From a virus, in IMG/VR virus record IMGVR_UViG_3300027887_000001, positions 1-56,421 of that record: a stretch of DNA of 56,421 nucleotides. The stretch is one strand, 5' to 3'. Position 1 is the first letter of the stretch. Each line of letters starts with the position of its first letter. Shown piece after piece: positions 12,835-32,683 of the stretch. Position numbers and translations under genes: made by a program. The notes under the pieces are model-generated. The model was not told the DNA's origin, ran no database searches, and saw only the letters and a program-made list of their open reading frames with translations.

Positions 12835-12920
12835 CAAATACGCCTAGTGGCAATACCGATCCGTAATACGCCAGGCGTACTGAGCCTGCTGCTTTTAGAG
12901 CAGCACTAGGCGAAGAAACT

Positions 12921-12966: not shown

Positions 12967-12993
12967 ATCTAATACCAGTCACAAGGAGGTAAC

Positions 12994-15249: not shown

Positions 15250-15694
15250 TCCAGGTAAGACAACGGGAGTATGTACGTTTGGCTTTGACCATCTGGCTAA
15301 GTCAATTGAAGATGCCTTCCATCCAGTTGAGTGTCTCGAGATTGCATGGGAAGATCGTTTCTATATGCTCGAGAAGCTCATCATGGGACGTGGCATGTAT
15401 GCTGAACTCAAGCCACAGATAATCGTCTTCGAGAACTTTCGATTGCGCCAAGGTCGTGCATTCGAACAATCAGGTTCGGACTTTCCGTCATCTCAGGTAA
15501 TTGGTATTGTAGGAGCATATGCTGCATTGATGATACCCAACCCTATCTTGGTTTCTCAAGAACCGGCTGCAATGACTCGCGTAGCCGTTAGAGAGGAACA
15601 CCTGAAGTTGATAACAGGCTCCTTACATAAAATAGATGCCTACAAACATGCCAGATACTACACCATCATGAATCACGTTTCGATGGTAGTATAG
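15227..15694 (+). CDS. RuvC-like Holliday junction resolvase
   Basis: N-terminal MIHCLSIDPGKTTGVC matches the RuvC-fold IDPG..tG motif. Size (155 aa) and position beside the helicase fit. Confidence 0.55.
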   Translation: MIHCLSIDPGKTTGVCTFGFDHLAKSIEDAFHPVECLEIAWEDRFYMLEKLIMGRGMYAELKPQIIVFENFRLRQGRAFEQSGSDFPSSQVIGIVGAYAALMIPNPILVSQEPAAMTRVAVREEHLKLITGSLHKIDAYKHARYYTIMNHVSMVV

Positions 15695-15703
15695 GAATGT
15701 GCA

Positions 15704-18432: not shown

Positions 18433-19241
18433 TGGCATCAGAACCTAAGCCAGACGATAAACTGAAGTTGTTAGTCTATGGTCGTCCAGGGTGCGGTAAA
18501 ACGTATCTGATGGGCACAGGGGCTGGAGATAAACGGTTGGGTCGTTGCCTTATGCTTGAAGCAAAGGGTAATCCCATTTCCCTCAGAAAGATGAAAGTGA
18601 AGCCGGATATCATATCCATTCACGCAATGCAGGACTTCAATGGGCCGTATCGTTGGTTATCAGACGGACAAGATCCAAACGATTCCTTTTGTAAGGAGTT
18701 TGATTTAGAGCCACCGTACAGCACATTACTGATAGATGGTCTCACTGAAGTTCAACGACAAATGGTTCGACGTATCACGGGTGTTGTTGATATGATGCCA
18801 GGTGAGCTCACACCTCCATTAGGTCGTCAGGGATTCGGTTCACTACTTGGTTCGATGTTGAACTGGGCAGTCAAGTTCTTCGATCTCGCTGAGACAACTA
18901 TATGGGGCGATCGTGCTCTGAACATCATGATTTCGAGTCACGAAGCAACATCTCAGGACGATAAACAGGTAATGAATACCAAGCCATTGATTTGGGGTCA
19001 ATCAGGAGATGAGATTGCTGGATACGCTTACATGGTAATGCGATTGTCAACACGCATGCAGGTTGATAGCGATATCAAAGCAGAGAATCCTGATGTTATC
19101 AAACCCGATGTATTCAATGTAGGGCAAGTGTGGCCCACTACAAAGGTCTATGCAAAGGACCAGTATCAGACTGGTGTAACACATATCATCAATCCATCAA
19201 TGGAGAAGATTCTAGACTTGATTGAGCAGGGCAGCCAATAA
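18432..19241 (+). CDS. RecA-fold AAA ATPase (Sak4-like recombination protein)
   Basis: Walker A VYGRPGCGKTYL and Walker B LLIDGLTE. Sits upstream of a DUF669-like gene, a typical pairing. Confidence 0.6.
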   Translation: MASEPKPDDKLKLLVYGRPGCGKTYLMGTGAGDKRLGRCLMLEAKGNPISLRKMKVKPDIISIHAMQDFNGPYRWLSDGQDPNDSFCKEFDLEPPYSTLLIDGLTEVQRQMVRRITGVVDMMPGELTPPLGRQGFGSLLGSMLNWAVKFFDLAETTIWGDRALNIMISSHEATSQDDKQVMNTKPLIWGQSGDEIAGYAYMVMRLSTRMQVDSDIKAENPDVIKPDVFNVGQVWPTTKVYAKDQYQTGVTHIINPSMEKILDLIEQGSQ

Positions 19242-19291
19242 GTCAGGACCTAACCTAAACAACTCACATACAGAAAGCGAGAACCTAAAAC

Positions 19292-19723
19292 ATGTCCCCA
19301 AGTATTGATTTTGGAAGTGTCAAAGGCCTGGAGCCTATTCCGGCTGGTAACTATTTGGCTACAATTACCAAGGCTGACAGCGGTCAGTCCAAAGCTGGAA
19401 ATCAGAAGATCGATGTCCAGTGGAAGATTGACGGTGGTCAGTACGATGGCCGCATCATCTTCGAATCCCTTGTCTTCACTGAGAAGACGCTGTTTCGTGT
19501 CAAGAACACTCTCCTGGGTCTTGGCTTTGACAAGAACTTCAATGGAGAGATCACCAGCGAAATGTTGGTGAACAAGGTTGCCACGATCTCCGTTGACATC
19601 GAAATCTCCACGCAGGTGGATCCTGAAACGGGAGAGCCGTATCCTCCTCGTAACCGCATCAAGAAGGTTCAGGCCCCGAAGGCTGGTGGTGCTCCTTCAT
19701 TGATTCCTGGTAAGAAGAAGTAA
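19292..19723 (+). CDS. DUF669-like single-stranded-DNA-binding protein
   Basis: PAGNYLATITKADSGQSKAGNQKIDVQWKIDGGQYDGRIIFESL matches my recollection of the DUF669 pattern. Basic, flexible C-tail. Confidence 0.5.
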   Translation: MSPSIDFGSVKGLEPIPAGNYLATITKADSGQSKAGNQKIDVQWKIDGGQYDGRIIFESLVFTEKTLFRVKNTLLGLGFDKNFNGEITSEMLVNKVATISVDIEISTQVDPETGEPYPPRNRIKKVQAPKAGGAPSLIPGKKK

Positions 19724-19799
19724 GGCTACGAGACGTAGCAAGTAATACAACCTGACAGAGCTGCCCTGCTCACCCTAGTTTAGAATCAACGAGGCGACG

Positions 19800-22232
19800 A
19801 TGACAGACTTTCTAAAAAGTTTTGCGTTCGGTGGAATAATTGCTATATGTATTCCACCAGACGGTGCGAAGCCTACGCCTGCGCATACGAAGTATATTAT
19901 TAGCGAAGACGTCTCTACCATTGAAATACCAGATGATAGAGACGTCTTCTTTGGTCCTGCGATGCGGCAGTCATTTGGAACCGAAAAGAAAGATGTGTAT
20001 GGCTCTATTGCATTGTGGGTTGATGCTGATGATCCTCAGCGTCCGCTATTTACCTTACCACCTTCGTATATGGTGTTTAGCGGACACGGTTGGCATCTCT
20101 ACTGGCTTCTCACAGAGCCTGTGCTTGATGTTGAGTTGTTGGAAGAGCTCAACAAGATAGTTACGGAAGACGTTCCAACGGCTGACAAGGCATGTTGGAA
20201 TGCAAATAGGATATTACGAGTACCTGGAACGCTCAATAGAAAGGAAGAACCCCATGTTAGGTGTGAAGTTCGAGTTTCAAGACCCACAATCAGATATAGC
20301 ATTGCCGATATTCGAGTGGTTGCAAGCCTTGATAACAAAGCGAGGCACAAAATTCGAACCGGTGACAGTCGAGGTTACAGATCGAGAAGCGAACGTGACT
20401 GGGCTATTGTCACGGCACTCGTCTCTGCTGGCGCAAGTGACGATCTCATTACCCGATTATTCGCACTACAACCTTGTGGGGACAAAGCCCAAGAAAACGA
20501 TCATTATCTACCGCAGACCATTGAAAAAGTCCGCGAGAAAGTCCAAGCCCAAGAGCGTGACGGAATCACAAGCTTCACACCTCACGCAGAAGAAGTCTCG
20601 TCCGAAATCAAAGAAGACGACGAAGGCTACTACATCGGCACGAAAAGAGGCGTAAGGCGACTCAGTACCTTCGTAATTGTACCCCAGTTGCTATTGGACG
20701 GTTCGAAGTTCAACGGCGAAGATGCAATCGTATCACAAGTAAAGGCTGCAGGATATACGTGGGATGGCAAGACGTTTTCACGTCAAGCGTTCACCACTGT
20801 ATCGCGCTTCGACAAAGAAGCGCCCGTTATGGCGTGGCAGTGGCTGGCCCACGACGATGATTTGAGAGCGCTCCTCCCATACCTCCTGGACAAGCTCCGG
20901 GCCGTCGGGTTACCGAAAATCGCTGCCACGCCAATGATGGGATTACATAAGCTAAGTGATAAGTGGTTCTTCGTTGGTGACAAGGAGGTCCTAGATGGTG
21001 CGCAAGTATGGGAAGGGTTCTCAGGACCGATTGCTTGGTTACCAGCACAGAAAGAACATCCGCAATTGGACTTACATGCAGTATGTAGTAAGAAGGAATT
21101 AGAGTTCATTGCAACATCAGTTCCATTACTCAATAGGGAGACTTCGATATGGCCTATGATTGGTTGGTACAGCGCATCGTGTTTGAAACCCTGGATCGAA
21201 CAACACAACTTGAGATTTCCTATACTCAACGTTGCTGGTACAAAGGGTTCTGGCAAGACCACACTAATTCAACGGGTCTTCCTACCTTTATTCGGGCAGA
21301 CAGATCCGAAGACATACGATTCAGGTACGACTCGATTCGTTACCTTAGCCTTGTTAGGGTCGTCTAATGCTATACCAATCGCATTCTCTGAGTTCAGATA
21401 TGAACTTGTCGAACGGTTTCTACGCTTCGTCCTCCTCGCTTACGATACCGGTCACGATCCGCGGGGGAAAGGCGATCAAACGACAGTGGACTATCCTCTC
21501 GCGGCTCCTTTCAGTGTCGATGGGGAAGACCTTATTGAAGATCCCGCAGCAAGGGAACGTATTGTTGTGGCACAATTACACCCTCATGATATTGATGAAG
21601 AGTCCGAAGGATACAAAACGTTTCAACAGCTTCGTAATAATCTTCCGCATGGATTTGGAGGTCACTTCATCCAAAGCACTTTGGCGCTCATGCCAGAGTT
21701 GGAGGGGATGCTTGAAGGCGCTCGTGCTGAAGTCTTCCGATGTTTCCCCGCGAAGCTTCCGGATAGAGTTAGAAACAATCACATAGTGACATACTTCGGT
21801 ATGACATTATGGTGTAGAATTACAGGTACTCCACTTCCTGAACCTACTGTGCTTCAAGGAAGTATTGAGTCTGTATATAATCTCAAGTCAGGACGTGCTC
21901 CGACACTTGCAGATGGTATGGTTGAAGACATCGTGAATGCCAGTGTAGCTGGTACAATGAACTTCAATCACGTGTACGATCAAGCGAATGGGATACTTTG
22001 GTTTCAACTAGCTCCAGCTCATTCGTGGTGGATTACATCCAGGCGTCGTCAAGGCCGTGGCGCTCTAGAACGTGATGCTATTCGTGCTCAACTAAAAGAA
22101 GCTCCGTATTCGGAGCAACCTCAAGCCTTGAACGATACCTGGATGTATGGTATCAATCTAGCCCGAGCAGCCGAGGTCGGACTAGATGTTCCAAGTAAGC
22201 TTCCCGATCGGTCATTTGTAGTACGATTCTGA
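19800..22232 (+). CDS. AEP primase-polymerase fused to a P-loop (SF3/D5-like) helicase
   Basis: AEP motifs LWVDADD, SGHGWHLYW and RILRVPGTLN. Walker A VAGTKGSGKTTL and Walker B-like SVDGEDL. Confidence 0.75.
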   Translation: MTDFLKSFAFGGIIAICIPPDGAKPTPAHTKYIISEDVSTIEIPDDRDVFFGPAMRQSFGTEKKDVYGSIALWVDADDPQRPLFTLPPSYMVFSGHGWHLYWLLTEPVLDVELLEELNKIVTEDVPTADKACWNANRILRVPGTLNRKEEPHVRCEVRVSRPTIRYSIADIRVVASLDNKARHKIRTGDSRGYRSRSERDWAIVTALVSAGASDDLITRLFALQPCGDKAQENDHYLPQTIEKVREKVQAQERDGITSFTPHAEEVSSEIKEDDEGYYIGTKRGVRRLSTFVIVPQLLLDGSKFNGEDAIVSQVKAAGYTWDGKTFSRQAFTTVSRFDKEAPVMAWQWLAHDDDLRALLPYLLDKLRAVGLPKIAATPMMGLHKLSDKWFFVGDKEVLDGAQVWEGFSGPIAWLPAQKEHPQLDLHAVCSKKELEFIATSVPLLNRETSIWPMIGWYSASCLKPWIEQHNLRFPILNVAGTKGSGKTTLIQRVFLPLFGQTDPKTYDSGTTRFVTLALLGSSNAIPIAFSEFRYELVERFLRFVLLAYDTGHDPRGKGDQTTVDYPLAAPFSVDGEDLIEDPAARERIVVAQLHPHDIDEESEGYKTFQQLRNNLPHGFGGHFIQSTLALMPELEGMLEGARAEVFRCFPAKLPDRVRNNHIVTYFGMTLWCRITGTPLPEPTVLQGSIESVYNLKSGRAPTLADGMVEDIVNASVAGTMNFNHVYDQANGILWFQLAPAHSWWITSRRRQGRGALERDAIRAQLKEAPYSEQPQALNDTWMYGINLARAAEVGLDVPSKLPDRSFVVRF

Positions 22233-22245
22233 AAGGAGTAATAGC

Positions 22246-22527
22246 ATGGCAGACCAAAACGGATTGAGTGGCGTTGAACAGATCGAAGCAGAACGCAAAC
22301 GCCAAATAGAAACGAAGGGCTTCGTTGCTGAGCACGATGAGCAGTGGACCGAAGGTGAGCTCGTTGAAGCTGCAACGGCATTGCTCTTAGGTGAGGAAGA
22401 TTTGTGGCCCTGGTTTGATGATAACGAAGAGTCTACCTTCAAATCAGAAGGTAACATTGAGGACTTGGTTCGTGCAGGTGCTCTGATTGCAGCCGAGATC
22501 GATCGCTTGCAGAGGTTGGAGGGATAG
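22246..22527 (+). CDS. Conserved-looking hypothetical protein (93 aa)
   Basis: EAERKRQ..KGF..EHD...GELVEAA...LWPW...LVRAGALIAAEIDRL pattern. I recall it as a widespread phage family but cannot name it. Confidence 0.5.
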   Translation: MADQNGLSGVEQIEAERKRQIETKGFVAEHDEQWTEGELVEAATALLLGEEDLWPWFDDNEESTFKSEGNIEDLVRAGALIAAEIDRLQRLEG

Positions 22528-22528
22528 T

Positions 22529-23158
22529 GTGCCCTCAATTGATTTCAAAGCGGTTGATACGCCCGTCTTTTCTCGACCCGAATTGCTAAGACATGGAACA
22601 ATCCCGCAACCCCTCTTTGGTGTGGCTCCTAGAAACATCATGGGAGAAGTCTGGTGGGATCTTACCAGACGCGAGGCTTACTCGCGGAACAACATGCGTT
22701 GCTACGCCTGTGGGGGTCCTGGACCTCTCAATGCACATGAAGTCTATGACATTGATTATGCCAGGCGTACGTCAACGTACATCGAAGCCGTTGCCTTATG
22801 CAACAAATGCCACGATTTCATTCATATCGGCAGGCTTGTCAGTCTATTCTCGCGTGAGAAAGTTTCTATACGCGAATTCAAGGCGACGGTATTACACGGA
22901 TACAATACTCTCCGCGTTGCAGGTCTCAAATGTCATTGGTCCACCACAGCCATTCGGACAGCAACGACATACATGAAGGCCGACAAGGGATGGGTTGATC
23001 AGATACTACGTAACTGCGATCCACCTCCTAAGGTTGTCATGGAACACAATGCTAAGCTCGAATGGGATGACTGGCGAATGATATTCGAAGGTAAGAAGTA
23101 CAAGCCGAAGTATGTAAACAGTGCTGATGCTACACAACATTATCTTATGGAAGAATAG
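22529..23158 (+). CDS. Zinc-binding, HNH-like protein of unknown function, GTG start
   Basis: GTG 22529 after ggaggga. RCYACGG...NAHEVYD...LCNKCHDFIHIG resembles an HNH/zinc-finger core. Confidence 0.45.
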   Translation: MPSIDFKAVDTPVFSRPELLRHGTIPQPLFGVAPRNIMGEVWWDLTRREAYSRNNMRCYACGGPGPLNAHEVYDIDYARRTSTYIEAVALCNKCHDFIHIGRLVSLFSREKVSIREFKATVLHGYNTLRVAGLKCHWSTTAIRTATTYMKADKGWVDQILRNCDPPPKVVMEHNAKLEWDDWRMIFEGKKYKPKYVNSADATQHYLMEE

Positions 23159-23166
23159 GAGGTGAT

Positions 23167-23898
23167 ATGACAAGAACAGTGTTATTGTTTTCGGGTGGCT
23201 TAGATAGTACTTCGTTGCTAGCCCAACTAATGACAACAGAGGAAGAAATCCTTGCGCTGTCGTTCAAGTATGGCTCTCTTCACGAAGGTTCTGAGATGTT
23301 GGCAGCTGCAAATGTGATAAAGTATTACGAAGGAGTTGCCCACGAAGTGATTCAGTTACCCATCGAAATATTTGCAGGTGGTAGCTCGGCTTTACTAGGA
23401 CAGACTGAAATGCCTAACGAGGAATACCACGATATCACCAAAGAGACTCCTTCAGCAACAGTAGTGCCATTTCGTAATGCTAATCTCATTTCGATGGCTG
23501 TCTCAGTTGCGAACTCTCGTGGCTTCGATCAAGTTGCCATTGCGAACCATGCAACGGACTCGCAAGGATGGGCCTACCCAGATTGCACACCAGAATTTAT
23601 GGGTCCGATGGCGGCAGCAGTATACATTGGAACGATGAGAGCTGTTCGGCTGTACACACCCTTCCAGTTCCTGACGAAGGCTGATATTGTGACGCTAGCT
23701 GCTAGGCACAGGGCGCCATTGTATTTGACTCGTTCGTGTTATCGAGGTGGTATGATTGCATGTGGGGAGTGCCCTACATGCTTAGAGCGCATTACGGCTT
23801 TCGTAATTGCTGGCTACGTTGACCCAATCAAGTACGTTCTCGAACCTAGAGCTTGGGACATTGTTGGTCTCAAAGAGTTTCCGAAAGAAGAGAGGTGA
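23167..23898 (+). CDS. queC: 7-cyano-7-deazaguanine synthase QueC
   Basis: PP-loop VLLFSGGLDSTS, VVPFRNANL, YPDCTPEF, C-terminal SCYRGGMIACGECPTCLERITAF..YVDP. Confidence 0.9.
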   Translation: MTRTVLLFSGGLDSTSLLAQLMTTEEEILALSFKYGSLHEGSEMLAAANVIKYYEGVAHEVIQLPIEIFAGGSSALLGQTEMPNEEYHDITKETPSATVVPFRNANLISMAVSVANSRGFDQVAIANHATDSQGWAYPDCTPEFMGPMAAAVYIGTMRAVRLYTPFQFLTKADIVTLAARHRAPLYLTRSCYRGGMIACGECPTCLERITAFVIAGYVDPIKYVLEPRAWDIVGLKEFPKEER

Positions 23899-23900
23899 GC

Positions 23901-24542
23901 ATGGCAACAGCAGTACTTGCATTAGACGGATTAGCAACAGCAACACTCATAGCTGATGTGGTGGTCGAAGCTGCGATCCCAAATGATACTATGGTTGTTT
24001 CGCTACCACACGGCTTACGCCATCAGGAAGGAACGGCACAAAGAGTATCAGCCCACTTTGGGCTCAACTGGTACTCCTTTGACGTACCTCAGTTATGGTA
24101 TAGTAGTGATCCGATGATTGTAGTACCTTTTCGAGATTCATTACTTGCGGGCTATGCGATTGCATTAGCTGCTCAGTATGCAGTTAGTTGGATTGCCCTT
24201 CCTGGTCATGCTAGTGCACCTTATACATGGACAACGCCCGATTATATGCCCGAGTGCGTAGGTGGCTTAGCTTCAGCAGCGGTTGCGGGTACGAACTTAG
24301 CAGTCCGTGTACGAGCACCCTATGCTTGGATGACGAAGGCTGATATCGTTCGTTGGGCAGCCGTTCTTCGCGCACCGCTATGGCTCTCTTGGTCATGCTA
24401 CATCAATGATATAGCTGCATGTGGCGTATGTCCTTCATGTCTCGAACGTATCGCAGCCTTCACCGAAGCGGGCTTCATCGATCCTATCTCGTATGCTATC
24501 CAAGTAGCGTGGCCGCAGGGTATCGCGGAGTTTCCGAGGTAA
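23901..24542 (+). CDS. QueC paralog with degenerate PP-loop (function unknown)
   Basis: Collinear with QueC (VVPFRD, MPECVG, MTKADIV, SCYINDIAACGVCPSCLERIAAF..FIDP), but SGGLDS is replaced by LDGLAT. Confidence 0.75.
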   Translation: MATAVLALDGLATATLIADVVVEAAIPNDTMVVSLPHGLRHQEGTAQRVSAHFGLNWYSFDVPQLWYSSDPMIVVPFRDSLLAGYAIALAAQYAVSWIALPGHASAPYTWTTPDYMPECVGGLASAAVAGTNLAVRVRAPYAWMTKADIVRWAAVLRAPLWLSWSCYINDIAACGVCPSCLERIAAFTEAGFIDPISYAIQVAWPQGIAEFPR

Positions 24543-24545
24543 TGT

Positions 24546-24986
24546 ATGTGGACAATCTCAAGGGACTATTCGTTCAGTGCCGCTCATCGAATTGAGGGCC
24601 ACCCCAAATGCGGACGTCTTCATGGGCATAACTACAAGGTGCGAGTCACATTGTGGGGATATCCCGGTAGGAGTGGGATGCTTCTTGATTACGGTGACCT
24701 TGATAAGATAGTCAAGCCCTTCATTGAAGCTCTCGATCACAGATACATCGTTTCGAATCAAAACGAAAGTGGAGGTGACGAATATGGACCTATTGCAGTA
24801 AAGCGTGGTGATGCAGCAAGATTGAACATCGAGGCATCTACAGCAGAACTTCTAGCAAAGTGGTTCTTCACACTCTGTAGGCATGATCTGCTTTCGAAGT
24901 ATCCAGGAACATGGTACGAAGGTTTCCGAATGGCAATTGAGGTTCAGGAAACTGACAAATCGTTCGCAACCTATACGGAGATGTAA
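24546..24986 (+). CDS. queD: 6-carboxy-5,6,7,8-tetrahydropterin synthase QueD
   Basis: FSAAHRIEGHPKCGRLHGHNYKV matches the PTPS/QueD active-site motif. 146 aa. Confidence 0.85.
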   Translation: MWTISRDYSFSAAHRIEGHPKCGRLHGHNYKVRVTLWGYPGRSGMLLDYGDLDKIVKPFIEALDHRYIVSNQNESGGDEYGPIAVKRGDAARLNIEASTAELLAKWFFTLCRHDLLSKYPGTWYEGFRMAIEVQETDKSFATYTEM

Positions 24987-24987
24987 T

Positions 24988-25635
24988 ATGTCAAAGACTT
25001 GCACCAAGTGTCAACAAACTAAAGAAGACGATGCCTTCAACAAGGATAGTCGGTCTATCGATGGCTTGGCGTGGTGGTGCAAAGACTGCTCGCGGGCTCA
25101 GAGTAAGAAGTATCGCTCCGAACATCTCGAAGAACGCCGTGCAGTAGAGCGCGCTCGACGAACCGACACTGACAGAGAGCGCGCTCGTAACTACTATCAC
25201 GAGCATCGAAAAGAGTACAAGGCCTACATTACGGCTCATCCTGAAGTTCATCGTAGATCAGCACTCAAGACGTTCTACAAACTCACGATGGAAGAGTACG
25301 ATAAGATGCTCATTGAGCAAGATGGTAAGTGTGCCATCTGTGAGACTCCGCAGGAAGAGCTCAAGAAGCCCCTCGTTGTAGACCACGACCATAACACAGG
25401 GGCAGTGCGTGGGCTTCTTTGCCCTAATTGCAATCACGGCTTAGGTCGTTTCAAGGACAGTCTAGATACCGTTAGAAAGGCTGTATTGTACTTAGAGCAA
25501 GGTGAGGTTCGTAATATTATTGCAGCTACCGCGGCTGCAGAGAAAGCAAAGGAGGTGGTGCCTGTTGAAGTGAAACAAGAACAGCCGATAAAAGAGGTGA
25601 AAGATGACAAGCCAAAGTACACAGCAATTGATTGA
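24988..25635 (+). CDS. HNH endonuclease, endonuclease VII family (free-standing homing-type)
   Basis: QDGKCAICE...LVVDHDHNTGAVRGLLCPNCNHGLGRF is the Endonuclease_7 core. Additional N-terminal CxxC...CxxC. Confidence 0.8.
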   Translation: MSKTCTKCQQTKEDDAFNKDSRSIDGLAWWCKDCSRAQSKKYRSEHLEERRAVERARRTDTDRERARNYYHEHRKEYKAYITAHPEVHRRSALKTFYKLTMEEYDKMLIEQDGKCAICETPQEELKKPLVVDHDHNTGAVRGLLCPNCNHGLGRFKDSLDTVRKAVLYLEQGEVRNIIAATAAAEKAKEVVPVEVKQEQPIKEVKDDKPKYTAID

Positions 25636-25900
25636 GGAACGCGATGCAACATACGGCGTGGCATGGAAAGCTTCAGGTTATGCACTCCAGCCGTTAGCGA
25701 AGCAAGTGATTGGCTTGCTCCTAAAAGCACCCGAAGCGTTCTTCCCGTGGCTTATGATTCATAATAAGCTAATACGGATATTGGCCAATCCACACCATAT
25801 AGACAGCTGGCGCGATATTGCAGGATATGCTGAACTAATGGTTCAAGACATAGAGCGCGAGAGCGCAAAGAAAGGAACGGAATATCATGGTAAAGTTTGA
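25604..25900 (+). CDS. Small helical protein, DUF1599/Nmad1-like (tentative)
   Basis: ERDATYG...W....HNKLIRIL...DSWRDIAGYAELM resembles the nucleotide-modification-associated DUF1599 pattern from memory. Confidence 0.35.
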   Translation: MTSQSTQQLIEERDATYGVAWKASGYALQPLAKQVIGLLLKAPEAFFPWLMIHNKLIRILANPHHIDSWRDIAGYAELMVQDIERESAKKGTEYHGKV

Positions 25901-26255
25901 AGAAGTTGCACCTGAAGATGTTGGCGATAAGTTCGATACTCGAGGTCGTGTATCGTATCCGCTTCTGCGTGATTTCCTTGCTACTGGAATGTATTCAGCA
26001 TCGCCTGATCTTGCTGGATACGACCAGAAGCTCGAGCGCATTGCGTCGTCCTGCATCAACTACTGCCGCGTTCATCAACTGCCTGTGAAAGTTCTTCAGA
26101 AGGGTGGTCGCTTGGTTTTCTATCGCCTGGACTACACGCCTGAAGGTCAGCCCATTCCAGGTTGGTTGGAGAAGCGGCAGCGTCAGCGTGAGGCGCGTGT
26201 TGGTGGAGACATCGACATCAAGCCCATAGCAATTGCAGCTGTCAAAACCAAGTAG
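25887..26255 (+). CDS. Hypothetical protein (122 aa) in the deazaguanine island
   Basis: ORF overlapping the upstream stop by 14 nt. No motif recognised. Confidence 0.5.
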   Translation: MVKFEEVAPEDVGDKFDTRGRVSYPLLRDFLATGMYSASPDLAGYDQKLERIASSCINYCRVHQLPVKVLQKGGRLVFYRLDYTPEGQPIPGWLEKRQRQREARVGGDIDIKPIAIAAVKTK

Positions 26256-26263
26256 CATTACTA

Positions 26264-26294
26264 AAGGGAGGTTCGTCTTGATGAGAACCTCCCA
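26264..26294 (+). other. Hairpin after 25887..26255 (possible weak terminator or attenuator)
   Basis: gggaggttc / gaacctccc 9-bp stem. No clear T-run. Confidence 0.35.
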
Positions 26295-26315
26295 CTTCCA
26301 AGAATTTGGAGACAT

Positions 26316-26534
26316 ATGTCTACAAAAGCGATATCAAGGATTATGTTGTATAACTACATATACTACTTGCAAGAGCTTGTGCCCTTTTCTTGGATAGAAG
26401 GTATGAACATGCTTGAGCCTAATGAGACCTTGCCTATACAAGGAATTGTTTACTCACAGCATCCGGACACAGCCTTCCCTTTGGAAGTGCTTGCGTTACG
26501 TAAAGGAGACTCCGATGACCTATCAAGTAAATGA
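26316..26534 (+). CDS. Questionable small ORF (72 aa)
   Basis: ggaga lies only 3 nt before the ATG. The ORF overlaps the queE start by 20 nt. The region could instead be a leader. Confidence 0.25.
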   Translation: MSTKAISRIMLYNYIYYLQELVPFSWIEGMNMLEPNETLPIQGIVYSQHPDTAFPLEVLALRKGDSDDLSSK

Positions 26535-27153
26535 AATCTTTCGATCAGTGCAAGGAGAAGGACTTCTAGCTGGCACTCCCGCAACCTTTATCCGCTTACA
26601 GGGATGCACTGTAGGATGTCCTTGGTGCGATACGAAGTACACATGGAATAAAGGCGGTACCAAGCTTGGGGTTGATGAGATACTCGAAATAGCATATCCA
26701 CTTCAGCCTCTAGCTGTGATTACTGGGGGTGAACCTACATTGTACAATCTTGATGAGCTAATCAAGGGTCTGTGGGATGTGGGTCAGAAGCGCTATGGAT
26801 ATACTTTTGGGGTGCAACTCGAAACATCAGGTCAACAAGATCTCAAAGGCGAGCTTAGGCCCAACTGGATCACGTGGTCACCTAAACCAAACCTGAATTA
26901 CAATGCACCTGAGGCACTCATAAAGCAGGTTTCCGAAGTCAAGTGGGTTATAGATGACGAGATTGAGTTGGACACAATACTTACTCTAGCTGAATGGTTC
27001 AATACACATACTAGACATAAGGTTCCGTTTGTGTTGATGCCAGAAGGAACTCCTCCTACTCAGGAACACGTTGATAAGGCTCTCGAGTGGGTTGCAAATC
27101 GTAAGCACTTCCGATACGGCGATCGCATTCAATGGCGGATAGGAGTAAAATGA
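26515..27153 (+). CDS. queE: 7-carboxy-7-deazaguanine synthase QueE (radical SAM)
   Basis: Start at ATG 26515 after aaaggaga. EIFRSVQGEGLLAGTPATFIRLQGCTVGCPWCDTKY contains the CX3CX2C radical-SAM cluster. Confidence 0.85.
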   Translation: MTYQVNEIFRSVQGEGLLAGTPATFIRLQGCTVGCPWCDTKYTWNKGGTKLGVDEILEIAYPLQPLAVITGGEPTLYNLDELIKGLWDVGQKRYGYTFGVQLETSGQQDLKGELRPNWITWSPKPNLNYNAPEALIKQVSEVKWVIDDEIELDTILTLAEWFNTHTRHKVPFVLMPEGTPPTQEHVDKALEWVANRKHFRYGDRIQWRIGVK

Positions 27154-27710
27154 TGGCCAGTCCAATGCATAATGACGAAATGAGACTTGCGGATATCCTA
27201 AAAGGTATCTTTGGTATGGAAGTCTGGGACGACTCTGTAGAACAAACTGCTGCACGATGGCTTAGAGCAATGAAGGAGTTCGCGCCTGATGCAGAGCCCC
27301 CTTTTATATTCACAACGTTTCCCGCACTAGCGAATCAGATGATAGTAGTGAAGAACATCGAGTTTGCGTCACTATGCGCACATCATCTCTTTCCATACGC
27401 GGGGCTAGCCCATGTGGGATATATTCCGAACGAATTGCAAGTTGGTGTAAGCAAAATTCCGAGATTAGTACACCACTTAGCGAAGCGGCCGAGCGTGCAA
27501 GAGAAGCTTACGCGCGACGTAGCCTCGTTCATGAAGCATCAGCTATCCGCGATGGGAGTCGCAGTTGTTATACAGGCAACCCATACTTGTATGTCGTGTC
27601 GGGGAGTTAGTGAACACAATGCTATCATGAGCACATCCGAAATGCGCGGTGTGTTCTTGACGGCCTCAGAAGCACGTCAGGAGTTTCTCACCCTGGCAGG
27701 ATTGGTATAA
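27150..27710 (+). CDS. folE: GTP cyclohydrolase I (FolE type 1)
   Basis: SLCAHHLFPY (CEHH-like), VGVSKIPRLVHHLAKRPSVQEKLT, ATHTCMSCRGV. Start at ATG 27150 or 27153 after AGGAG. Confidence 0.85.
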   Translation: MMASPMHNDEMRLADILKGIFGMEVWDDSVEQTAARWLRAMKEFAPDAEPPFIFTTFPALANQMIVVKNIEFASLCAHHLFPYAGLAHVGYIPNELQVGVSKIPRLVHHLAKRPSVQEKLTRDVASFMKHQLSAMGVAVVIQATHTCMSCRGVSEHNAIMSTSEMRGVFLTASEARQEFLTLAGLV

Positions 27711-27711
27711 C

Positions 27712-27909
27712 ATGGCTACTGTTAGTCTACATCCAAACTCCAGTCTAACGGTTGTACAGAATGAGTTCATGATATATGCAACCGAAATGATATGGAATAA
27801 CAAGGTCGATCGAATCGTCAAGGAGTACGACAATCTCGATATTATTGTGTATCGACTACCAGGTACTATTCGAATCGATATCAGATTGAAAGGATTACAG
27901 CCAACATGA
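27712..27909 (+). CDS. Hypothetical protein (65 aa) between folE and the dpdA-like gene
   Basis: ATG 2 nt after the folE stop. ATGA overlap with the downstream gene. Confidence 0.45.
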   Translation: MATVSLHPNSSLTVVQNEFMIYATEMIWNNKVDRIVKEYDNLDIIVYRLPGTIRIDIRLKGLQPT

Positions 27910-28646
27910 AACTAGCTGTTATTACTCCACCCAAGGGCCTAAAGCTACTCTCGCATCATGAGTTGGGATATCATATGGTACTTCCACAGTATATGACTAT
28001 TCCCAGCTATGCGATATTCTATCATCGTGTTGCAAAAGGTGGGCACTTCATCATGGTAGATAACGGAGCAGCTGAACTAGGTAAGTCTATAGAATGGGCT
28101 ACCGTGCTTGATGTTGCAGATCAACTAGATGCAGCTGAGATTGTGATGCCAGATGTGCTAGACAACGCTTTGGAAACCTGGATCGAAACAGAAAAGGCGT
28201 TACCAACAGTACCTGCACGTAGGAGAGCTATGTGTCCTCAAGGTCGTTCATGGAGCGACTGGGAATCATGTCTAGAGCGTATGGTAAACGCAGGTTGCCG
28301 AACGATTTGTGTAGCAAAACGTTACGAGAAACTTCCAGGTGGACGTGCTCGTGGCGTCGAAATCATATGCAAGCACAATTGGCATCTAGACCACGATATC
28401 CATTACCTAGGAGTTCATAAAAATCCCTTAGCCGAAGCACAACTTGCAGTGAATCAGCACAACGACGATATCTCTAAGCTTGTGCGAGGTATAGATACTG
28501 CAGCACCAATTGCATATGCACAAGCTGGCATACGCTTAGACGCCACCGATTCGCATCACTCGTTGGATTGGACAAAAGAATTCCCTATTGAACTTGCGTC
28601 AAGCAATATAGCATTGCTACTTAGCATTACTGATAGCAGGAGGTAA
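27906..28646 (+). CDS. dpdA: Minimal TGT-fold DNA-guanine transglycosylase (DpdA-like)
   Basis: FIMVDNGAAE (cf. TGT DSGGFQ), VMPDVL, HYLGVHKNP (cf. YLMGVGKP), GIDTAAPIAYA (cf. FDCV.PTR). No C-terminal zinc subdomain. 246 aa. Confidence 0.6.
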   Translation: MKLAVITPPKGLKLLSHHELGYHMVLPQYMTIPSYAIFYHRVAKGGHFIMVDNGAAELGKSIEWATVLDVADQLDAAEIVMPDVLDNALETWIETEKALPTVPARRRAMCPQGRSWSDWESCLERMVNAGCRTICVAKRYEKLPGGRARGVEIICKHNWHLDHDIHYLGVHKNPLAEAQLAVNQHNDDISKLVRGIDTAAPIAYAQAGIRLDATDSHHSLDWTKEFPIELASSNIALLLSITDSRR

Positions 28647-28647
28647 T

Positions 28648-28908
28648 ATGCACATCGAAGTGAAGGATCCGCTCAAGAAAGACATTGTAGGAGTATTGTG
28701 TATCGAACGAGATTCACACTCCGCAATTATCCTAGAAGCCGAAATCGAGTACTTGGAGACTCTGGTATCGATTGCCAAGTCTCAGAAGGTGCCATTAGTT
28801 ACGCTTGTGGTACCCCATGGTGCGGTTCCTGAACTACAAGCACTAGGTTGGCAAGTTGATGACACCCGCGTTGTGCTTACGAAAGGCGGTAACGGTAATG
28901 GATCCTGA
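28648..28908 (+). CDS. Hypothetical protein (86 aa)
   Basis: aggaggtaatATG RBS. Sits between the dpdA-like gene and the polymerase. Confidence 0.5.
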   Translation: MHIEVKDPLKKDIVGVLCIERDSHSAIILEAEIEYLETLVSIAKSQKVPLVTLVVPHGAVPELQALGWQVDDTRVVLTKGGNGNGS

Positions 28909-31369
28909 AGAGAAGACATTCGAAGAGATATGGGGCATTCCAGATCCTGATGAAGAGGCTGTTGCGCCTAAAGCTCCAGGTGCTAAGTGTGCAACATGTC
29001 CTTTACGCCATCAACCTTACGTACCACACTCAGGTTCATTCGATGCATCGCTAATCATTATTGGTGAGGCACCTGGTGTAAAGGAAGTTGAGTTAGGTGC
29101 ACCATTTGTAGGACCTTCGGGTCAGCTTCTAGATACTGCTATCGAATGGGGTGGCGGTGATCCGGAAGACACATTCAGAACGAACATCGTTTGTTGCAAA
29201 CCGATTAGTCGTTCACCTGATATGGCTTCTGTAGGATGCTGTCATGACCGCCTGATAAAAGAACTCGAACAGTGTACATCGGATAAGATTCTCGTATTAG
29301 GTATGACAGCTACAGACGCCTTGGATTTTGCACCACAGCAAGGTGTGTGGCAGCCTTGGGGCAGTGCACACGCGCTAGTTGCCTGGCATCCGGCTTACAT
29401 CCTTCGTGACAAACCCGAAGAGGCTCCGATGTTCCTAGCTTGCGTTGCCTCAGCGGTGAAGGGGCCAGGATTTATGAAGAAGTTCAATCCTCAGCCTGTC
29501 TTCTGTAACACAGTAGAAGACTTGCAGGAGCAGTTCGCAAAATGTCCTGAGGGCTCTTGGGTAGCGCTAGATATTGAGACCGATCAGATCCAATGGTTCA
29601 ATACACCCAAGAAGTTAGCAGATGGTATCATCATGCTCCAGCTGTGCTGGGATGCGGATTATGCTGTTATCATATCGGATGCATTGATATACGATACACC
29701 CGAAGCAGTTATCTGTATCAATCAGTTCCTTGCAAAGCGTAAGATATGTGGACATAACGGGAAGTTTGACCAAGTCTTTCTGAAGTCTCATGTAGGTATT
29801 GACTTCTGGTTGGAATTTGATACTATGCTTGCTCACTATATCCTGAACGAGAATCTCAAGCACGGCTTGAAGGCGATAGCGCAACTAGAGTTTGGGATGT
29901 TCGATTACGAAGAGAAGATGTTGCACACATATCTCACTAGCCGTAATGATAGATACTCCAAGATCCCTTACGAAGAGTTTGCAGTATATGGTGGTAAGGA
30001 TGTTGCAGTAACATTAGCCCTTCGAGAGATATTCGAGGCGCGCCTTCGTAAGGAAGGGCAATATGATATGCCGTTCATGGAAATCATAATGCCTGCAGCG
30101 AATATGCTCACACAAGTAGAGTTGAAAGGTATGCATATCGACCCATCCAGGTTCGGAGCTATCTCCGCTGAATTCAAACAGCGAATCGAAGCTTCGACAG
30201 CAAAAATGCGGGAATTGGGAAACGCACCAAATCTAAATCCGAACTCGACTCAGCAGTTGGCTGTATTACTTTACGACGAGATGCATGCGCCTATTCCACA
30301 AGGCCGACAGTTCAAGGCTCGATCAACAAATAAGGATGCCTTGCAGAAGCTAAAGAAGATGACACATGATCCTGTTGTCCTGGAGTTCATAAAAGAACTC
30401 ACCGAGTATCGTCGTGTTGAAAAAATGCACAACTCATATGTAGATAACCTGCGAGATGTCATAGACATAGATAATCGTGTGCATGGCACGTTCCAAATCT
30501 TTGGAACTGAAGTAGGTAGGTTGTCCGTCAGAGATCCAGCGTTACAGACGATACCCAGACCTGATGATAGATTAGGATGGCTCATCCGAAGTATGTTTAC
30601 TGCTTCACCTGGTAACGTATTAGTCATCGGTGACTATAGTCAAGCAGAACTACGCGTATTGGCTTGTTACTCAAACGAGCCGTTCTTACTCGATGTTTAT
30701 GCGCACGGACGAGATCTTCATACTGAAGTTGCACTCAAGATGTTCGGTGAAGTGTTTACCAAGGCTGATCGAGCCAAATGCAAGATGTTCAACTTCTCAT
30801 ATGTATATGGTGGCACTGAGTATTCGTTTGCAGAAGATGCAGGTCTACCTATTGAGATAGCACATCAGTTCGTTCAAGACTATAATCGGATGATGCCTAC
30901 AGCATTAGCCTGGAAGCGAAAGCAATTCGAGACGATGCGTAAGGAAGGTGAGGTCTCTACCATCTTTGGTAGGAAGAGACGCTTCCCACTAATTGTGGAA
31001 TCCATTCTTGGCGACGTTCGCAAAGCAAGTACGCATATGGTGATATCATCTACAGCATCAGACTTAGACTTGATTTCGGCACTTGAGTTACACAATGAAG
31101 GTGTACCTATTGTACTATTAGTACACGACAGCATCATCGCGGAAGTGCCAATAGCACAGGGCAAAGACATTGGCCTGCGAATGTTTGCCAAGATGAAGGA
31201 AGTAGGAACTAGGTACTTCCCACAGATTCCGTGGGTTGCAGATGTTGAAGTACGCGATAGATGGTGTGGTGGAGATTACGAAGCGTACAATGGACCTGAA
31301 GAAGGTTGGGTCTTCCATTCAGGTGAGAAGGAAAACGATACTATGGCAGACTTAACGGTGCACGTATGA
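28898..31369 (+). CDS. Family A DNA polymerase with 3'-5' exonuclease and an N-terminal family-4 UDG-like domain
   Basis: UDG4 motifs: GEAPGVKE..GAPFVGPSGQLL, WHPAYILR, Cys CATCP/CCKP. Exo motifs: ALDIETD, GHNGKFD, YGGKDV. Pol motifs: GDYSQAELRVLA, RAKCKMFNFSYVYGG, LLVHDS. Confidence 0.9.
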   Translation: MDPEEKTFEEIWGIPDPDEEAVAPKAPGAKCATCPLRHQPYVPHSGSFDASLIIIGEAPGVKEVELGAPFVGPSGQLLDTAIEWGGGDPEDTFRTNIVCCKPISRSPDMASVGCCHDRLIKELEQCTSDKILVLGMTATDALDFAPQQGVWQPWGSAHALVAWHPAYILRDKPEEAPMFLACVASAVKGPGFMKKFNPQPVFCNTVEDLQEQFAKCPEGSWVALDIETDQIQWFNTPKKLADGIIMLQLCWDADYAVIISDALIYDTPEAVICINQFLAKRKICGHNGKFDQVFLKSHVGIDFWLEFDTMLAHYILNENLKHGLKAIAQLEFGMFDYEEKMLHTYLTSRNDRYSKIPYEEFAVYGGKDVAVTLALREIFEARLRKEGQYDMPFMEIIMPAANMLTQVELKGMHIDPSRFGAISAEFKQRIEASTAKMRELGNAPNLNPNSTQQLAVLLYDEMHAPIPQGRQFKARSTNKDALQKLKKMTHDPVVLEFIKELTEYRRVEKMHNSYVDNLRDVIDIDNRVHGTFQIFGTEVGRLSVRDPALQTIPRPDDRLGWLIRSMFTASPGNVLVIGDYSQAELRVLACYSNEPFLLDVYAHGRDLHTEVALKMFGEVFTKADRAKCKMFNFSYVYGGTEYSFAEDAGLPIEIAHQFVQDYNRMMPTALAWKRKQFETMRKEGEVSTIFGRKRRFPLIVESILGDVRKASTHMVISSTASDLDLISALELHNEGVPIVLLVHDSIIAEVPIAQGKDIGLRMFAKMKEVGTRYFPQIPWVADVEVRDRWCGGDYEAYNGPEEGWVFHSGEKENDTMADLTVHV

Positions 31370-31710
31370 GCGCAACGAAGTACATTATCAACGGAGGACG
31401 TATGCAGGGCAAATCTCTCTCCAGCGCCAGCGCTGTGCTGCTGAAGCGTGGTAGGGGATACTTCTACAAGAAGAAGTATCCTCAAGTAATGGTTTATACT
31501 AAGCACCGTTTGGAAATCGATATCCTGGAACGTCAGTTTGGGGGTAATCACTACATTCATCGAGGCGGATGGGTTTGGCTTTTGTCCGATCGCAAAGGAA
31601 TTCGAGCAATGGTAGAAAAGATGAAGCCGCACCTTCCTGTCATGGAAGAGTACGGCTTCAAGAATGTAGTTGAGAACGTTCTAGGCGGTTCTAACGAACA
31701 TGCTTCGTGA
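31366..31710 (+). CDS. Degenerate LAGLIDADG-like protein (tentative)
   Basis: LEIDILERQFGGNHYIHRGGWVWLLSDRKGIRAMVEKMKPHLPV resembles the LAGLIDADG-fold core. The N-terminal YIINGGRMQGKS lacks the acidic residues. Confidence 0.3.
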   Translation: MSATKYIINGGRMQGKSLSSASAVLLKRGRGYFYKKKYPQVMVYTKHRLEIDILERQFGGNHYIHRGGWVWLLSDRKGIRAMVEKMKPHLPVMEEYGFKNVVENVLGGSNEHAS

Positions 31711-31743
31711 CGTCCTCCTTGCACAGTGCTAAAGTGCTTAATG

Positions 31744-32004
31744 TTAGCCTGAGCGAATTTCTTTCACAAAGTCAACGGATCCCGCAGCTGTCAGTAGCAA
31801 CACTATGACTTTCCATAGTGCGTCTAGATAAGAAGCTGCTACAGGGAACTGTACGATCAGCAGGGGGATGTATAGCAGCACCAGCAACACAACGAAGGCT
31901 GCTAGAATTACCCACCACCCCTTCAAGCCCAGTTGGGTCTTGAAGAACGATGTGATTGCGATGACAAACGCAACAGTTAGAATCAGAGATGTATCTAGTG
32001 TCAT
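31744..32004 (-). CDS. Holin-like membrane protein (86 aa, 3 TM)
   Basis: Three hydrophobic helices and a charged C-terminus. Last gene of the late operon. ATGA overlap with the upstream gene. Confidence 0.5.
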   Translation of the reverse strand: MTLDTSLILTVAFVIAITSFFKTQLGLKGWWVILAAFVVLLVLLYIPLLIVQFPVAASYLDALWKVIVLLLTAAGSVDFVKEIRSG

Positions 32005-32375
32005 GTTTTACCTCCTTTCTCTGGTATGGTTACCAAACCATTCAAATCAGGTACTCCACCCAGTAAGTATACTTGATTACTCAAACGCCTTACTTGTCGC
32101 TCGAGTTCATCTATGCGCTCTTTATCCACTTTCACTTGAGCTACCAACGCATCGATGAACTCCCGTTGTGACTCAGTTAGATTGTCATAGTTCAGGCCAA
32201 TTTTACTGGCTGCATCCTTGTCGAGAAAGTTGACTTCTGCAGGAAGCTTCTTAGCCAACAAGGCATTTTGGTCTCTTACGGATCGATATGCATATACTGC
32301 AGCTATAGCGCCTGGAATGGCCATAAAGAGTGCTGGTACTACATACTGTAGTACGTATTCTAGGATTTTATCCAT
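32001..32375 (-). CDS. Membrane-anchored coiled-coil protein (lysis-associated candidate)
   Basis: Start moved to ATG 32375 (MDKILEYVLQYVVPALFMAIPGAIAAVYAY). N-terminal TM, then a heptad-like DKERIDELERQVRRLSNQV. Confidence 0.45.
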   Translation of the reverse strand: MDKILEYVLQYVVPALFMAIPGAIAAVYAYRSVRDQNALLAKKLPAEVNFLDKDAASKIGLNYDNLTESQREFIDALVAQVKVDKERIDELERQVRRLSNQVYLLGGVPDLNGLVTIPEKGGKT

Positions 32376-32683
32376 GGGATAGCCCTTTCTACAGCGCCAG
32401 CAATGATGAGTGCGAAACATGCAGTAATGATACCATGTAGACGCAATAGAGCTGACCAAATAATTGCCATATCAGAGTTTCGAAATGTGAGTGTATCGCT
32501 AAGTACATCTAGGGTGATTACATATGAGTAGAATGCAAGTTGGTGGAGTAGTAGTGCTATAATTGGTATCCCAAAGTACCAGATGTGTTTGTGCCTAATT
32601 GTCCATACGATGCTAAATACTAGTGCCACAAAGGCGATCAACCAATTTAGCATTTGAATGGGTGTTTCAGGATTTAGATTCAT
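32360..32683 (-). CDS. Multi-pass membrane protein (107 aa, holin candidate)
   Basis: Four hydrophobic segments. aggaggttacaATG RBS. Confidence 0.5.
   Translation of the reverse strand: MNLNPETPIQMLNWLIAFVALVFSIVWTIRHKHIWYFGIPIIALLLHQLAFYSYVITLDVLSDTLTFRNSDMAIIWSALLRLHGIITACFALIIAGAVERAIPWIKS

Follow-up and report, generated by a model that had tools for sequence, protein, structure and literature searches.

A wetland siphovirus island with a full set of preQ0 genes, a DpdA3-like transglycosylase and a conserved, predicted catalytically dead QueC paralog

Introduction

Replacement of guanine by 7-deazaguanine bases is a known and major strategy of phages against restriction enzymes, and by the accepted view for all DpdA families insertion of the base into DNA follows replication (PMC10516641). 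In the DpdA1-type cluster of Escherichia phage CAjan, FolE, QueD, QueE, QueC and DpdA lead to dPreQ0, and in phage 9g Gat-QueC leads to dG+ (PMC6884629, PMC10516641). In the three DpdA3 phages that have been analysed, all guanines are replaced (PMC10516641). Here we describe a 7-deazaguanine island, positions 22,246 to 31,369 of IMG/VR record IMGVR_UViG_3300027887_000001, an entire metagenome contig of 56,421 bp (hereafter the window) from an uncultivated wetland siphovirus. The island sits between the primase and DNA polymerase genes, and encodes the enzymes of preQ0 synthesis, a predicted DpdA3-like DNA guanine transglycosylase and a second, probably inactive QueC that we call pseudo-QueC.

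By its sequence, the system belongs with the DpdA3-type phage deazaguanine clusters, and its pathway content matches that of CAjan-type dPreQ0 clusters. As in the DpdA3 phage phiST, the transglycosylase is short (~250 aa), with the fold of tRNA-guanine transglycosylases (TGT), and the two are homologous by profile and by fold; as in DpdA3 phages, its gene lies beside those of FolE, QueD and QueE and near replication genes, and the predicted mechanism is a post-replicative exchange of guanine for a 7-deazaguanine. However, the enzyme is only 24% identical to the phiST DpdA3, and the window carries a canonical QueC and has neither DpdL (phiST) nor QueF/DpdN (immuto), so that the predicted base is preQ0, hitherto unreported for any DpdA3 phage; moreover, it adds the predicted dead QueC paralog. 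The window resembles the DpdA1-type siphophage clusters in that a siphovirus genome of about 56-60 kb carries the same four-gene preQ0 pathway and a single transglycosylase; with CAjan it also shares the predicted product. In contrast to these clusters, its transglycosylase is of another subfamily and has no PF01702 match, a Gat-QueC fusion is missing, the location is between primase and PolA, and a second, presumably inactive QueC is present. The differences from known clusters are the DpdA3-like enzyme joined to a full preQ0 pathway without tailoring genes, the primase-PolA location in a large uncultivated clade, and the pseudo-QueC.

Results

preQ0 synthesis genes and a DpdA3-like transglycosylase

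A first-pass annotation of this DNA, made from the letters alone, had proposed a full preQ0 pathway (folE, queD, queE, queC). Pfam, PHROG or NCBIfam matches and hallmark motifs were found for all four genes, which lie where that annotation had placed them or within a few codons (Table 1), and by gene content the route from GTP to preQ0 is thus complete. For QueC, the Pfam match spans positions 2-207 of the 210-position model, the pyrophosphate loop SGGLDS stands at residues 9-14, and the substrate-side signature can be read as YGSLH (the Tyr and His kept, the Gln replaced by Ser), VPFRN, YPDC and TKADIV; the zinc motif SCY..CGECPTC is intact and the ratio of nonsynonymous to synonymous substitution rates (dN/dS) is 0.066. 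Its score against TIGR00364 (140 bits) is slightly under the equivalog cut-off of 150.3, and QueD falls just short of that of TIGR03367 (81.9 bits, cut-off 89.25). The QueD motif, CGRLHGH, is the catalytic CxxxHGH and not the DpdL motif. Five NCBIfam QueE models match QueE with E-values from 3e-29 to 7e-13, all under their equivalog cut-offs, as might be expected for a divergent phage copy, and the motif CTVGCPWC is readable. In FolE the motif CAHH...C is readable; the metagenome gene call begins at 27153 and the open reading frame (ORF) at 27132.

Profile searches thus supported these four assignments but gave no Pfam or NCBIfam match for the 246-aa protein that had been read as a TGT-fold enzyme of the DpdA type. 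It had no PDB sequence match either, even with a 55-sequence profile, and it lacks the PF01702 match and the zinc subdomain of the tRNA-guanine transglycosylase family. Among 5.8 billion protein clusters we found 88 homologues, all unannotated. With homologues as the alignment, AlphaFold2 gave a (beta/alpha)8 barrel (pLDDT 94.7, pTM 0.91), and in a Foldseek search of the PDB the top 31 matches of this model were tRNA-guanine transglycosylases (Zymomonas mobilis TGT, E 2e-6); the bacterial DNA preQ0 insertase DpdA, 7ui4, was also matched (E 2e-4). Among the predicted viral structures of BFVD, the second-best match was M4SLA5 of Cellulophaga phage phiST (E 1e-13, TM-scores 0.78/0.74). The hhalign comparison of the family profile with M4SLA5 gave a probability of 99% and an E-value of 3.8e-18, with 24% identity over 189 columns. 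The motifs DNGA, PQG, a Lys after the fifth strand, HxLG and R..D are common to both. The phiST gene for M4SLA5 is CGPG_00065 (locus tag confirmed), which was named DpdA3 by Cui/Hutinet et al. (PMC10516641). The fold prediction of the first-pass annotation is thereby borne out at the level of models and profiles.

In the 55 sequences of the family, D52 (DNGAAE), D83 and D197 (RGIDT) are invariant, and their position within the motifs suggests that they correspond to the TGT catalytic aspartates. A single Cys (C122) is nearly invariant, and these sequences have no CxCxxC...H motif and no zinc subdomain. In the 80 loci that encode members of the family, the genes within 10 kb include those of FolE (61 loci), QueE (56), QueD (50), QueC (47) and PolA (67). 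The family is carried by at least 78 uncultivated IMG/VR viral contigs. Among the species genomes of bacteria and archaea searched with the DpdA profile (185,579), none had a relative, and 50,697 GenBank phage records held no close relative of the protein. Given the fold match, the profile alignment to the phiST DpdA3 and the gene context, we file it as a putative, distant DpdA3-like DNA transglycosylase outside the tRNA TGT Pfam family. The clade of DpdA3-like systems to which it belongs is large, uncultivated and apparently strictly viral.

A second QueC, conserved and predicted to be inactive

The start codon of pseudo-QueC lies 2 nt past the QueC stop, a spacing that would fit coupled synthesis. 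Its Pfam QueC match covers residues 70-190 only, the C-terminal two thirds. Over its last 142 aa, the protein has 46% identity to the adjacent QueC, and its nearest relatives are the QueCs of the same phage group, which together indicate that it is a diverged duplicate of the group's QueC, arisen by duplication within the lineage. The QueC signature comprises Y35 (YxQxHxxE), R99 (VPxRN), Y131 (YPDC), K165, Y189 and a C..CxxCxxC zinc motif, and Y35A and Y131A each abolish the activity of Escherichia coli QueC (PMC13329287). As the first-pass annotation had noticed, the PP-loop of pseudo-QueC is lost: LDGLAT stands in place of SGGLDS, and of its two known homologues one reads LDGLVT. Moreover, Y35 is replaced by His, YPDC has become TPDY with loss of Y131 (pseudo-QueC aligns here with the neighbouring QueC without gaps and without ambiguity), and about 23 residues across the L75/GGSALT loop are deleted. 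R99 (VPFRD), K165 (TKADIV), Y189 and the four zinc cysteines (SCY..CGVCPSC) are kept. Since the SGGxDS loop and the two tyrosines required in E. coli are gone, pseudo-QueC should have no preQ0 synthase activity and no ability to adenylate, or to bind or activate with ATP.

The structural model of pseudo-QueC (pLDDT 78) retains the QueC fold, with Bacillus subtilis QueC 3bl5 as its best PDB match (E 4.9e-8, TM-scores 0.67/0.72), and its confidence is lowest around the former YPDC motif. The dN/dS of pseudo-QueC is 0.091 at a dS of about 1.07, with 0.22 in the N-terminal third and 0.05 in the remainder. The protein is under strong purifying selection, comparable to that on QueC. A decaying pseudogene is ruled out by this low ratio and by the constraint on both halves of the gene.

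Pseudo-QueC is rare. A word search of the 5.8 billion clusters returned only 3 clusters of homologues (84-100% identity), and in a HMMER scan of 1.84e9 representatives it forms one 50%-identity cluster. Of the other matches without SGGxDS in that scan, most do not reach 200 aa and look truncated at the N terminus, and six that are longer have a variant loop or none. Pattern scans of IMG/VR and of JGI metagenomes gave no further pseudo-QueC. Among the fetched loci (given L numbers here), two QueC genes occur only in L002 and L003, the closest relatives of the window, and GenBank phages have one QueC each (134 records with 134 places for the paralog as query, 331 records with 333 places for QueC). 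As far as these searches reach, a conserved and catalytically dead QueC is undescribed so far; it is the sole real departure from the described clusters and is restricted to this sublineage.

The QueC scaffold has been put to other uses elsewhere. Campylobacter phages have a QueC homologue, QueC*, that has been proposed to stop at the amide ADG (PMC10516641); like pseudo-QueC it belongs to the QueC family and comes from a DpdA3 phage, and it is proposed to alter the output of the pathway. However, in the QueC homologue of Campylobacter phage CJLB-12 the motifs SGGLDS, VPFRN and FPDC and the Tyr of the Y35 motif are intact; this protein looks like an active ATP-dependent enzyme, and it is the sole QueC of its genome, whereas pseudo-QueC accompanies a canonical QueC. 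We rejected QueC* as an equivalent of pseudo-QueC, the ATP loop being kept in it. QatC and Cap9 likewise reuse the QueC scaffold outside preQ0 synthesis (PMC13329287, PMC13279940). They are host defence proteins that have kept the SGGxDS core and, around it, deazaguanylate proteins in an ATP-dependent reaction (PMC13329287), unlike pseudo-QueC, which lacks the ATP loop, is encoded by a phage and stands in a biosynthetic operon. DpdL, considered at first as a QueC-like decarboxylase that might explain pseudo-QueC, was dropped as a model because it is a QueD paralog (PMC10516641). Our working model for QueC and pseudo-QueC is that an inactive duplicate may serve as obligate partner beside the active enzyme. 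Eukaryotic TGT offers the analogy, with catalytic QTRT1 paired with its inactive paralog QTRT2, though the enzyme there is TGT and not QueC, and the domain of life is another.

Recognisable tailoring genes are absent here and varied in relatives

A Pfam scan of all other ORFs of at least 55 aa, on a non-overlapping ORF map of the window, found no QueF, amidotransferase, ArcS or other tailoring gene, and tblastn searches of the window with genes that occur in related islands (DJ-1/PfpI, GATase, Vut_1, methyltransferase) gave no match. The earlier statement that queF, an amidotransferase-QueC fusion and ArcS are missing thus withstood both searches. No DpdM-like gene was seen at Pfam level in the window, an absence that is less certain than that of the other tailoring families, as we know of no Pfam model for DpdM.

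The islands of related phages are more varied. A DJ-1/PfpI gene (class I amidotransferase-like) stands between the 122-aa ORF and QueE in L004, L008, L012, L013, L016, L024 and L033, a separate class-II glutamine amidotransferase lies between QueC and QueD in the distant relatives L029-L031, and S-adenosylmethionine (SAM)-dependent methyltransferases occur inside the islands of L008, L024 and L018. In three relatives (L018, L021, L036) a Vut_1/YhhQ-type transporter, of what we take to be a queuosine-precursor importer family, is paired with only QueC and DpdA. These varied accessories suggest several different end products within one phage group. L027, a locus without QueC, QueE and FolE, has a 146-aa QueD-like ORF whose CxxxHGH motif reads GESLHGH, with another residue for the catalytic Cys, reminiscent of the idea of DpdL as a repurposed QueD fold.

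Small ORFs and endonucleases of the island

Besides these genes, the first-pass annotation had listed six interleaved ORFs of unknown function and an HNH gene splitting the operon, and had taken the combination as a sign of a variant hypermodification pathway. The small ORFs are real genes under purifying selection, as their dN/dS of 0.07-0.28 against diverged relatives indicates. Two of the six can be given a family (the 209-aa HNH-like protein and the DUF6378 protein), and a seventh small ORF, of 72 aa, is present. The conclusion drawn from them was not supported, the ORFs being mostly backbone or generic genes with no recognisable tailoring chemistry.

For the 93-aa protein, 110 GenBank phage records covering a range of hosts contain homologues, its dN/dS against L002 is 0.17, and its domain is also found in phages without annotated deazaguanine genes nearby. 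The 209-aa protein has a readable CxxC...HE...CxxCH motif, a position kept in 9 related loci and a dN/dS of 0.21. The Endonuclease VII-type gene, whose presence within the operon was confirmed, combines a nuclease domain with sporadic occurrence at a fixed site among syntenic genomes, as a homing endonuclease does: it lies at the QueD-DUF6378 junction in seven relatives (L008-L011, L019, L020, L022) and elsewhere in three, and further relatives lack it. LAGLIDADG genes occupy the same part of the island in seven others (L014, L016-L018, L024, L025, L033). The junction is thus a hot spot for two unrelated homing endonuclease families and not a peculiarity of this genome.

The DUF6378 protein is found in 29 related loci and, by profile, the 86-aa protein in 24, in both cases including loci without synthesis genes; since both are present in relatives without QueD, QueE and FolE, they track the phage backbone and not the biosynthesis genes. 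DUF6378 also occurs in Klebsiella and Salmonella phages, and in Salmonella phage Skate there is no annotated deazaguanine gene within the 10 kb flanking it. Neither the 122-aa nor the 86-aa protein had a match in the family databases or the PDB (for the 122-aa protein Pfam, PHROG, NCBIfam and PDB), and profiles of both against PDB sequences gave nothing significant. The 122-aa protein was found in 15 related loci, all with QueE and FolE, and in none of five complete modules without them; about half of the complete pathways lack it, in a sample that is small and phylogenetically non-independent.

The 72-aa ORF fills the sole sizeable gap of the island (26256-26534), where relatives have the DJ-1/PfpI gene, and is only 48% identical to its counterpart in L005, a locus that is otherwise 91-97% identical. 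We rejected the stretch 26256-26514 as a relic of the relatives' DJ-1/PfpI gene, as tblastn found no similarity. Pfam, PHROG, NCBIfam and PDB searches revealed no enzyme-like signature in the remaining unknown ORFs. Judged by their sequences, the extra ORFs are largely backbone genes of the phage group, generic phage domains or selfish endonucleases, and not evident modification enzymes.

Organization of the island and its phage

The island is part of a single plus-strand block of 17 genes (19800-31710), in the order primase, 93-aa ORF, 209-aa ORF, QueC, second QueC, QueD, Endonuclease VII-type HNH, DUF6378, 122-aa ORF, 72-aa ORF, QueE, FolE, 65-aa ORF, TGT-fold protein, 86-aa ORF, UDG-exo-PolA and 114-aa ORF (Table 1). 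Intergenic distances range from -32 to +13 nt with the sole exception of 60 nt, and GGAG/GAGG-like (Shine-Dalgarno-like) sequences precede most starts. Scans of 19000-32500 for promoters (18 against 20.3 +/- 3.9 in shuffled sequence) and terminators (15 against 9.5 +/- 3.8) were not clearly above expectation.

Primase orthologues stand directly 5' of the island in 43 related loci. In the closer relatives the conserved order is primase - [209-aa HNH-like] - QueC - QueD - [homing endonuclease] - DUF6378 - [122-aa] - [DJ-1/PfpI] - QueE - FolE - [small ORF] - DpdA3-like - [86-aa] - PolA. The comparison of gene neighbourhoods that had been recommended for this island therefore shows a primase-to-PolA order kept in the closer relatives, with FolE near the DpdA3-like gene in 61 of 80 loci. 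The island ends, as had been stated, at the replicative polymerase, for which the metagenome gene call begins at 28898 and the ORF at 28856. In this polymerase the uracil-DNA-glycosylase (UDG) superfamily domain (PF03167, E 5e-20) is N-terminal, at about residues 59-190, with readable GEAPG and HPA motifs and several cysteines, and the fusion is also present in the related contig L004.

Table 1. Features of the plus-strand block and one distant ORF, with positions in the window
Feature	Positions	Strand	Evidence and remarks
ORF with class I SAM methyltransferase domain, 161 aa	1830-2315	+	Methyltransf_11 E 1.4e-5; far from island
Primase-type replication protein, 810 aa	19800-22232	+	PHROG DNA primase families E ~1e-16; upstream boundary of island
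93-aa protein, generic small phage domain	22246-22527	+	C-terminal parts of nine PHROG unknown-function families
209-aa HNH-like protein, adjoins primase gene	22529-23158	+	phrog_5200 'HNH endonuclease' E 1.2e-20
QueC, preQ0 synthase (CDG to ADG to preQ0, ATP-dependent)	23167-23898	+	Pfam QueC E 4.6e-48
Pseudo-QueC: QueC paralog, predicted catalytically dead, 213 aa	23901-24542	+	Pfam QueC E 4.7e-19
QueD, 6-carboxytetrahydropterin synthase	24546-24986	+	Pfam PTPS E 1.9e-25
Endonuclease VII-type HNH homing endonuclease	24988-25635	+	Pfam Endonuclease_7 E 2.5e-25; dN/dS 0.15
DUF6378 protein, 98 aa	25604-25900	+	Pfam DUF6378 E 2.2e-7
122-aa protein	25887-26255	+	dN/dS 0.07; confined to this phage group
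72-aa ORF	26316-26534	+	called as gene on identical contigs; no Pfam match; dN/dS 0.22 vs L005
QueE, radical-SAM 7-carboxy-7-deazaguanine (CDG) synthase	26515-27153	+	Radical_SAM E 4e-6; PHROG QueE-like E 1.7e-33
FolE, GTP cyclohydrolase I	27132-27710	+	Pfam GTP_cyclohydroI E 1.2e-48
65-aa ORF	27712-27909	+	no family match; homologue in L005 and L009; dN/dS 0.19
DpdA3-like DNA guanine transglycosylase (predicted), minimal TGT-type TIM barrel, 246 aa	27906-28646	+	AlphaFold2, Foldseek, hhalign
86-aa protein, always between DpdA and PolA genes	28648-28908	+	dN/dS 0.08
UDG-domain / 3'-5' exonuclease / family A DNA polymerase (UDG-exo-PolA)	28856-31369	+	Pfam DNA_pol_A E 2.4e-69, UDG E 5.3e-20, DNA_pol_A_exo1 E 1.8e-16; downstream boundary
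114-aa ORF	31366-31710	+	last gene of block

Elsewhere on the contig, an SPP1 portal, Dit, tape measure and Sipho_Gp37 are siphovirus structural genes. Shorter contigs of identical sequence occur in a sample with contig names in 'WSSed' and in other runs. The phage is new, given that none of the 50,697 GenBank phage records has DNA near-identical to the island or a PolA that reaches 30% identity with that of the contig. Divergence from L002 is mosaic: the primase is 94% identical (dS 0.5) and the 209-aa ORF 92%, and the synthesis genes are more diverged (QueC 76.5% identical, dS ~2.5; QueD 80%), which suggests recombination or exchange of synthesis genes between lineages. In the plus-strand early region (1-15700) most ORFs have no Pfam match, and only helix-turn-helix domains and one methyltransferase domain were seen. 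The ORF with the latter was rejected as a relocated island methylase, tblastn having shown no homology to the methylases inside the islands of relatives.

Discussion

Taken as a whole, the island is probably a deazaguanine DNA-modification module with dPreQ0 as its product and pseudo-QueC as a non-catalytic partner. FolE, QueD and QueE would convert GTP to CDG, and the canonical QueC would turn CDG with ATP into ADG and then preQ0. The DpdA3-like enzyme would then swap guanine in the double-stranded DNA of the phage for the deazaguanine base after replication, and the modified DNA would be shielded from host restriction; that DNA is the target is our inference. Expression would take place within one co-directional block with the replication genes. 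As neither a reductase nor an amidotransferase, ArcS, methylase or formylase gene accompanies the pathway, the final base is most likely dPreQ0, and its level may be high because DpdA3-type enzymes are reported to replace all guanines. Pseudo-QueC would most likely assist QueC or the hand-off of the base, for example by forming a heteromer, by holding substrate or product, or by regulation. Our confidence in the gene identities is much higher than in the product or the partner role: for dPreQ0 as product our confidence lies only somewhat above even, and the partner role, tentative as it is, lies somewhat below.

Several points weigh against this picture. No DpdA3 enzyme has so far been shown to be active in vitro or in E. 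coli, and the phiST and Campylobacter DpdA3 were doubted as preQ0 inserters by the same authors (PMC10516641). With only 24% identity to the phiST DpdA3, the enzyme of the window could have another substrate. Pseudo-QueC, with R99, K165, Y189 and the zinc site kept, could bind a deazaguanine and catalyse an ATP-independent step, and the 122-aa ORF, the only unknown that is exclusive to loci with de novo genes, might have a role in the pathway.

The main alternative, a narrowed form of the first-pass proposal that we consider unlikely, is that pseudo-QueC, alone or with the 122-aa, 65-aa or 86-aa proteins, alters the base that is inserted. Either QueC would release ADG, or water or ammonia would be added to the preQ0 nitrile without ATP, and the DNA would contain dADG, dG+ or an undescribed base instead of dPreQ0. 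The tested DpdA3 phages have ADG, DG or formyl-preQ1 and not preQ0 (PMC10516641), and product diversification seems common in the group, as DJ-1/PfpI, GATase and methyltransferase genes make the island diverse among related phages; the very slot of pseudo-QueC, between QueC and QueD, holds the class-II glutamine amidotransferase in L029-L031. Selection on pseudo-QueC is as strong as on the surrounding enzymes, and several of its substrate-side residues are kept together with the zinc site. However, the essential pocket residues Y35 and Y131 and the whole pocket loop are gone, we could identify no residue that would catalyse hydration of the nitrile or formation of an amidine, the model is least confident around the former YPDC, and the remaining unknown ORFs have no enzyme-like signature.

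Much less probable is that pseudo-QueC acts in counter-defence, as a decoy that mimics QatC of the Qat system or Cap9 of type IV CBASS (anti-phage signalling that is based on cyclic oligonucleotides), or that sequesters CDG, and so blocks deazaguanylation-dependent host immunity without being a step of DNA modification. QueC-family proteins are core components of these two deazaguanine-using anti-phage systems (PMC13329287), and an inactive yet conserved binder is what a decoy would be expected to look like. Cap9 is also the best PDB sequence match of pseudo-QueC (9nto_B, E 0.0024) and its second-best fold match, but this similarity is weak and general to the family, and pseudo-QueC is most similar to the biosynthetic QueCs of its own group. 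It also lies inside the biosynthetic operon, directly 3' of QueC.

The least credible reading, a module that supplies queuosine or preQ0 for tRNA with the TGT-fold protein acting on tRNA, could appeal to a fold that is common to tRNA enzymes and to tRNA-guanine transglycosylases as best PDB matches, but it is opposed by a 246-aa barrel without TGT Pfam match or zinc-binding cysteine motif that belongs with the DpdA3 of phiST, a phage with fully modified DNA (PMC10516641), by a gene kept directly upstream of the DNA polymerase gene (PolA being within 10 kb in 67 of the 80 loci), and by the lack of any relative in the 185,579 cellular genomes.

To conclude, our results favour a dPreQ0 module in which pseudo-QueC is a non-catalytic partner, and the window, as the simplest full pathway of its clade, is a clean candidate for asking whether a DpdA3-type enzyme inserts preQ0: complete guanine replacement has been reported for systems of this type, but none of the DpdA3 enzymes has yet been reconstituted. 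The swappable accessories of the clade's islands (DJ-1/PfpI, split amidotransferase, Vut_1/YhhQ-type transporter and methyltransferases) map where further base chemistry may lie. Pseudo-QueC would be a first pseudoenzyme case in this pathway. If it merely stabilises QueC, it would be a modest addition to a known system. We think it rather improbable, if not to be dismissed lightly, that pseudo-QueC is either a decoy against Qat or type IV CBASS or a pseudoenzyme subunit by which the pathway's output is reprogrammed, for example through release of ADG or hand-off of the base to the DpdA3-like enzyme, with a base other than dPreQ0 and possibly complete replacement of guanine. Should such a reprogramming be true, pseudo-QueC would be a new kind of component in this pathway.

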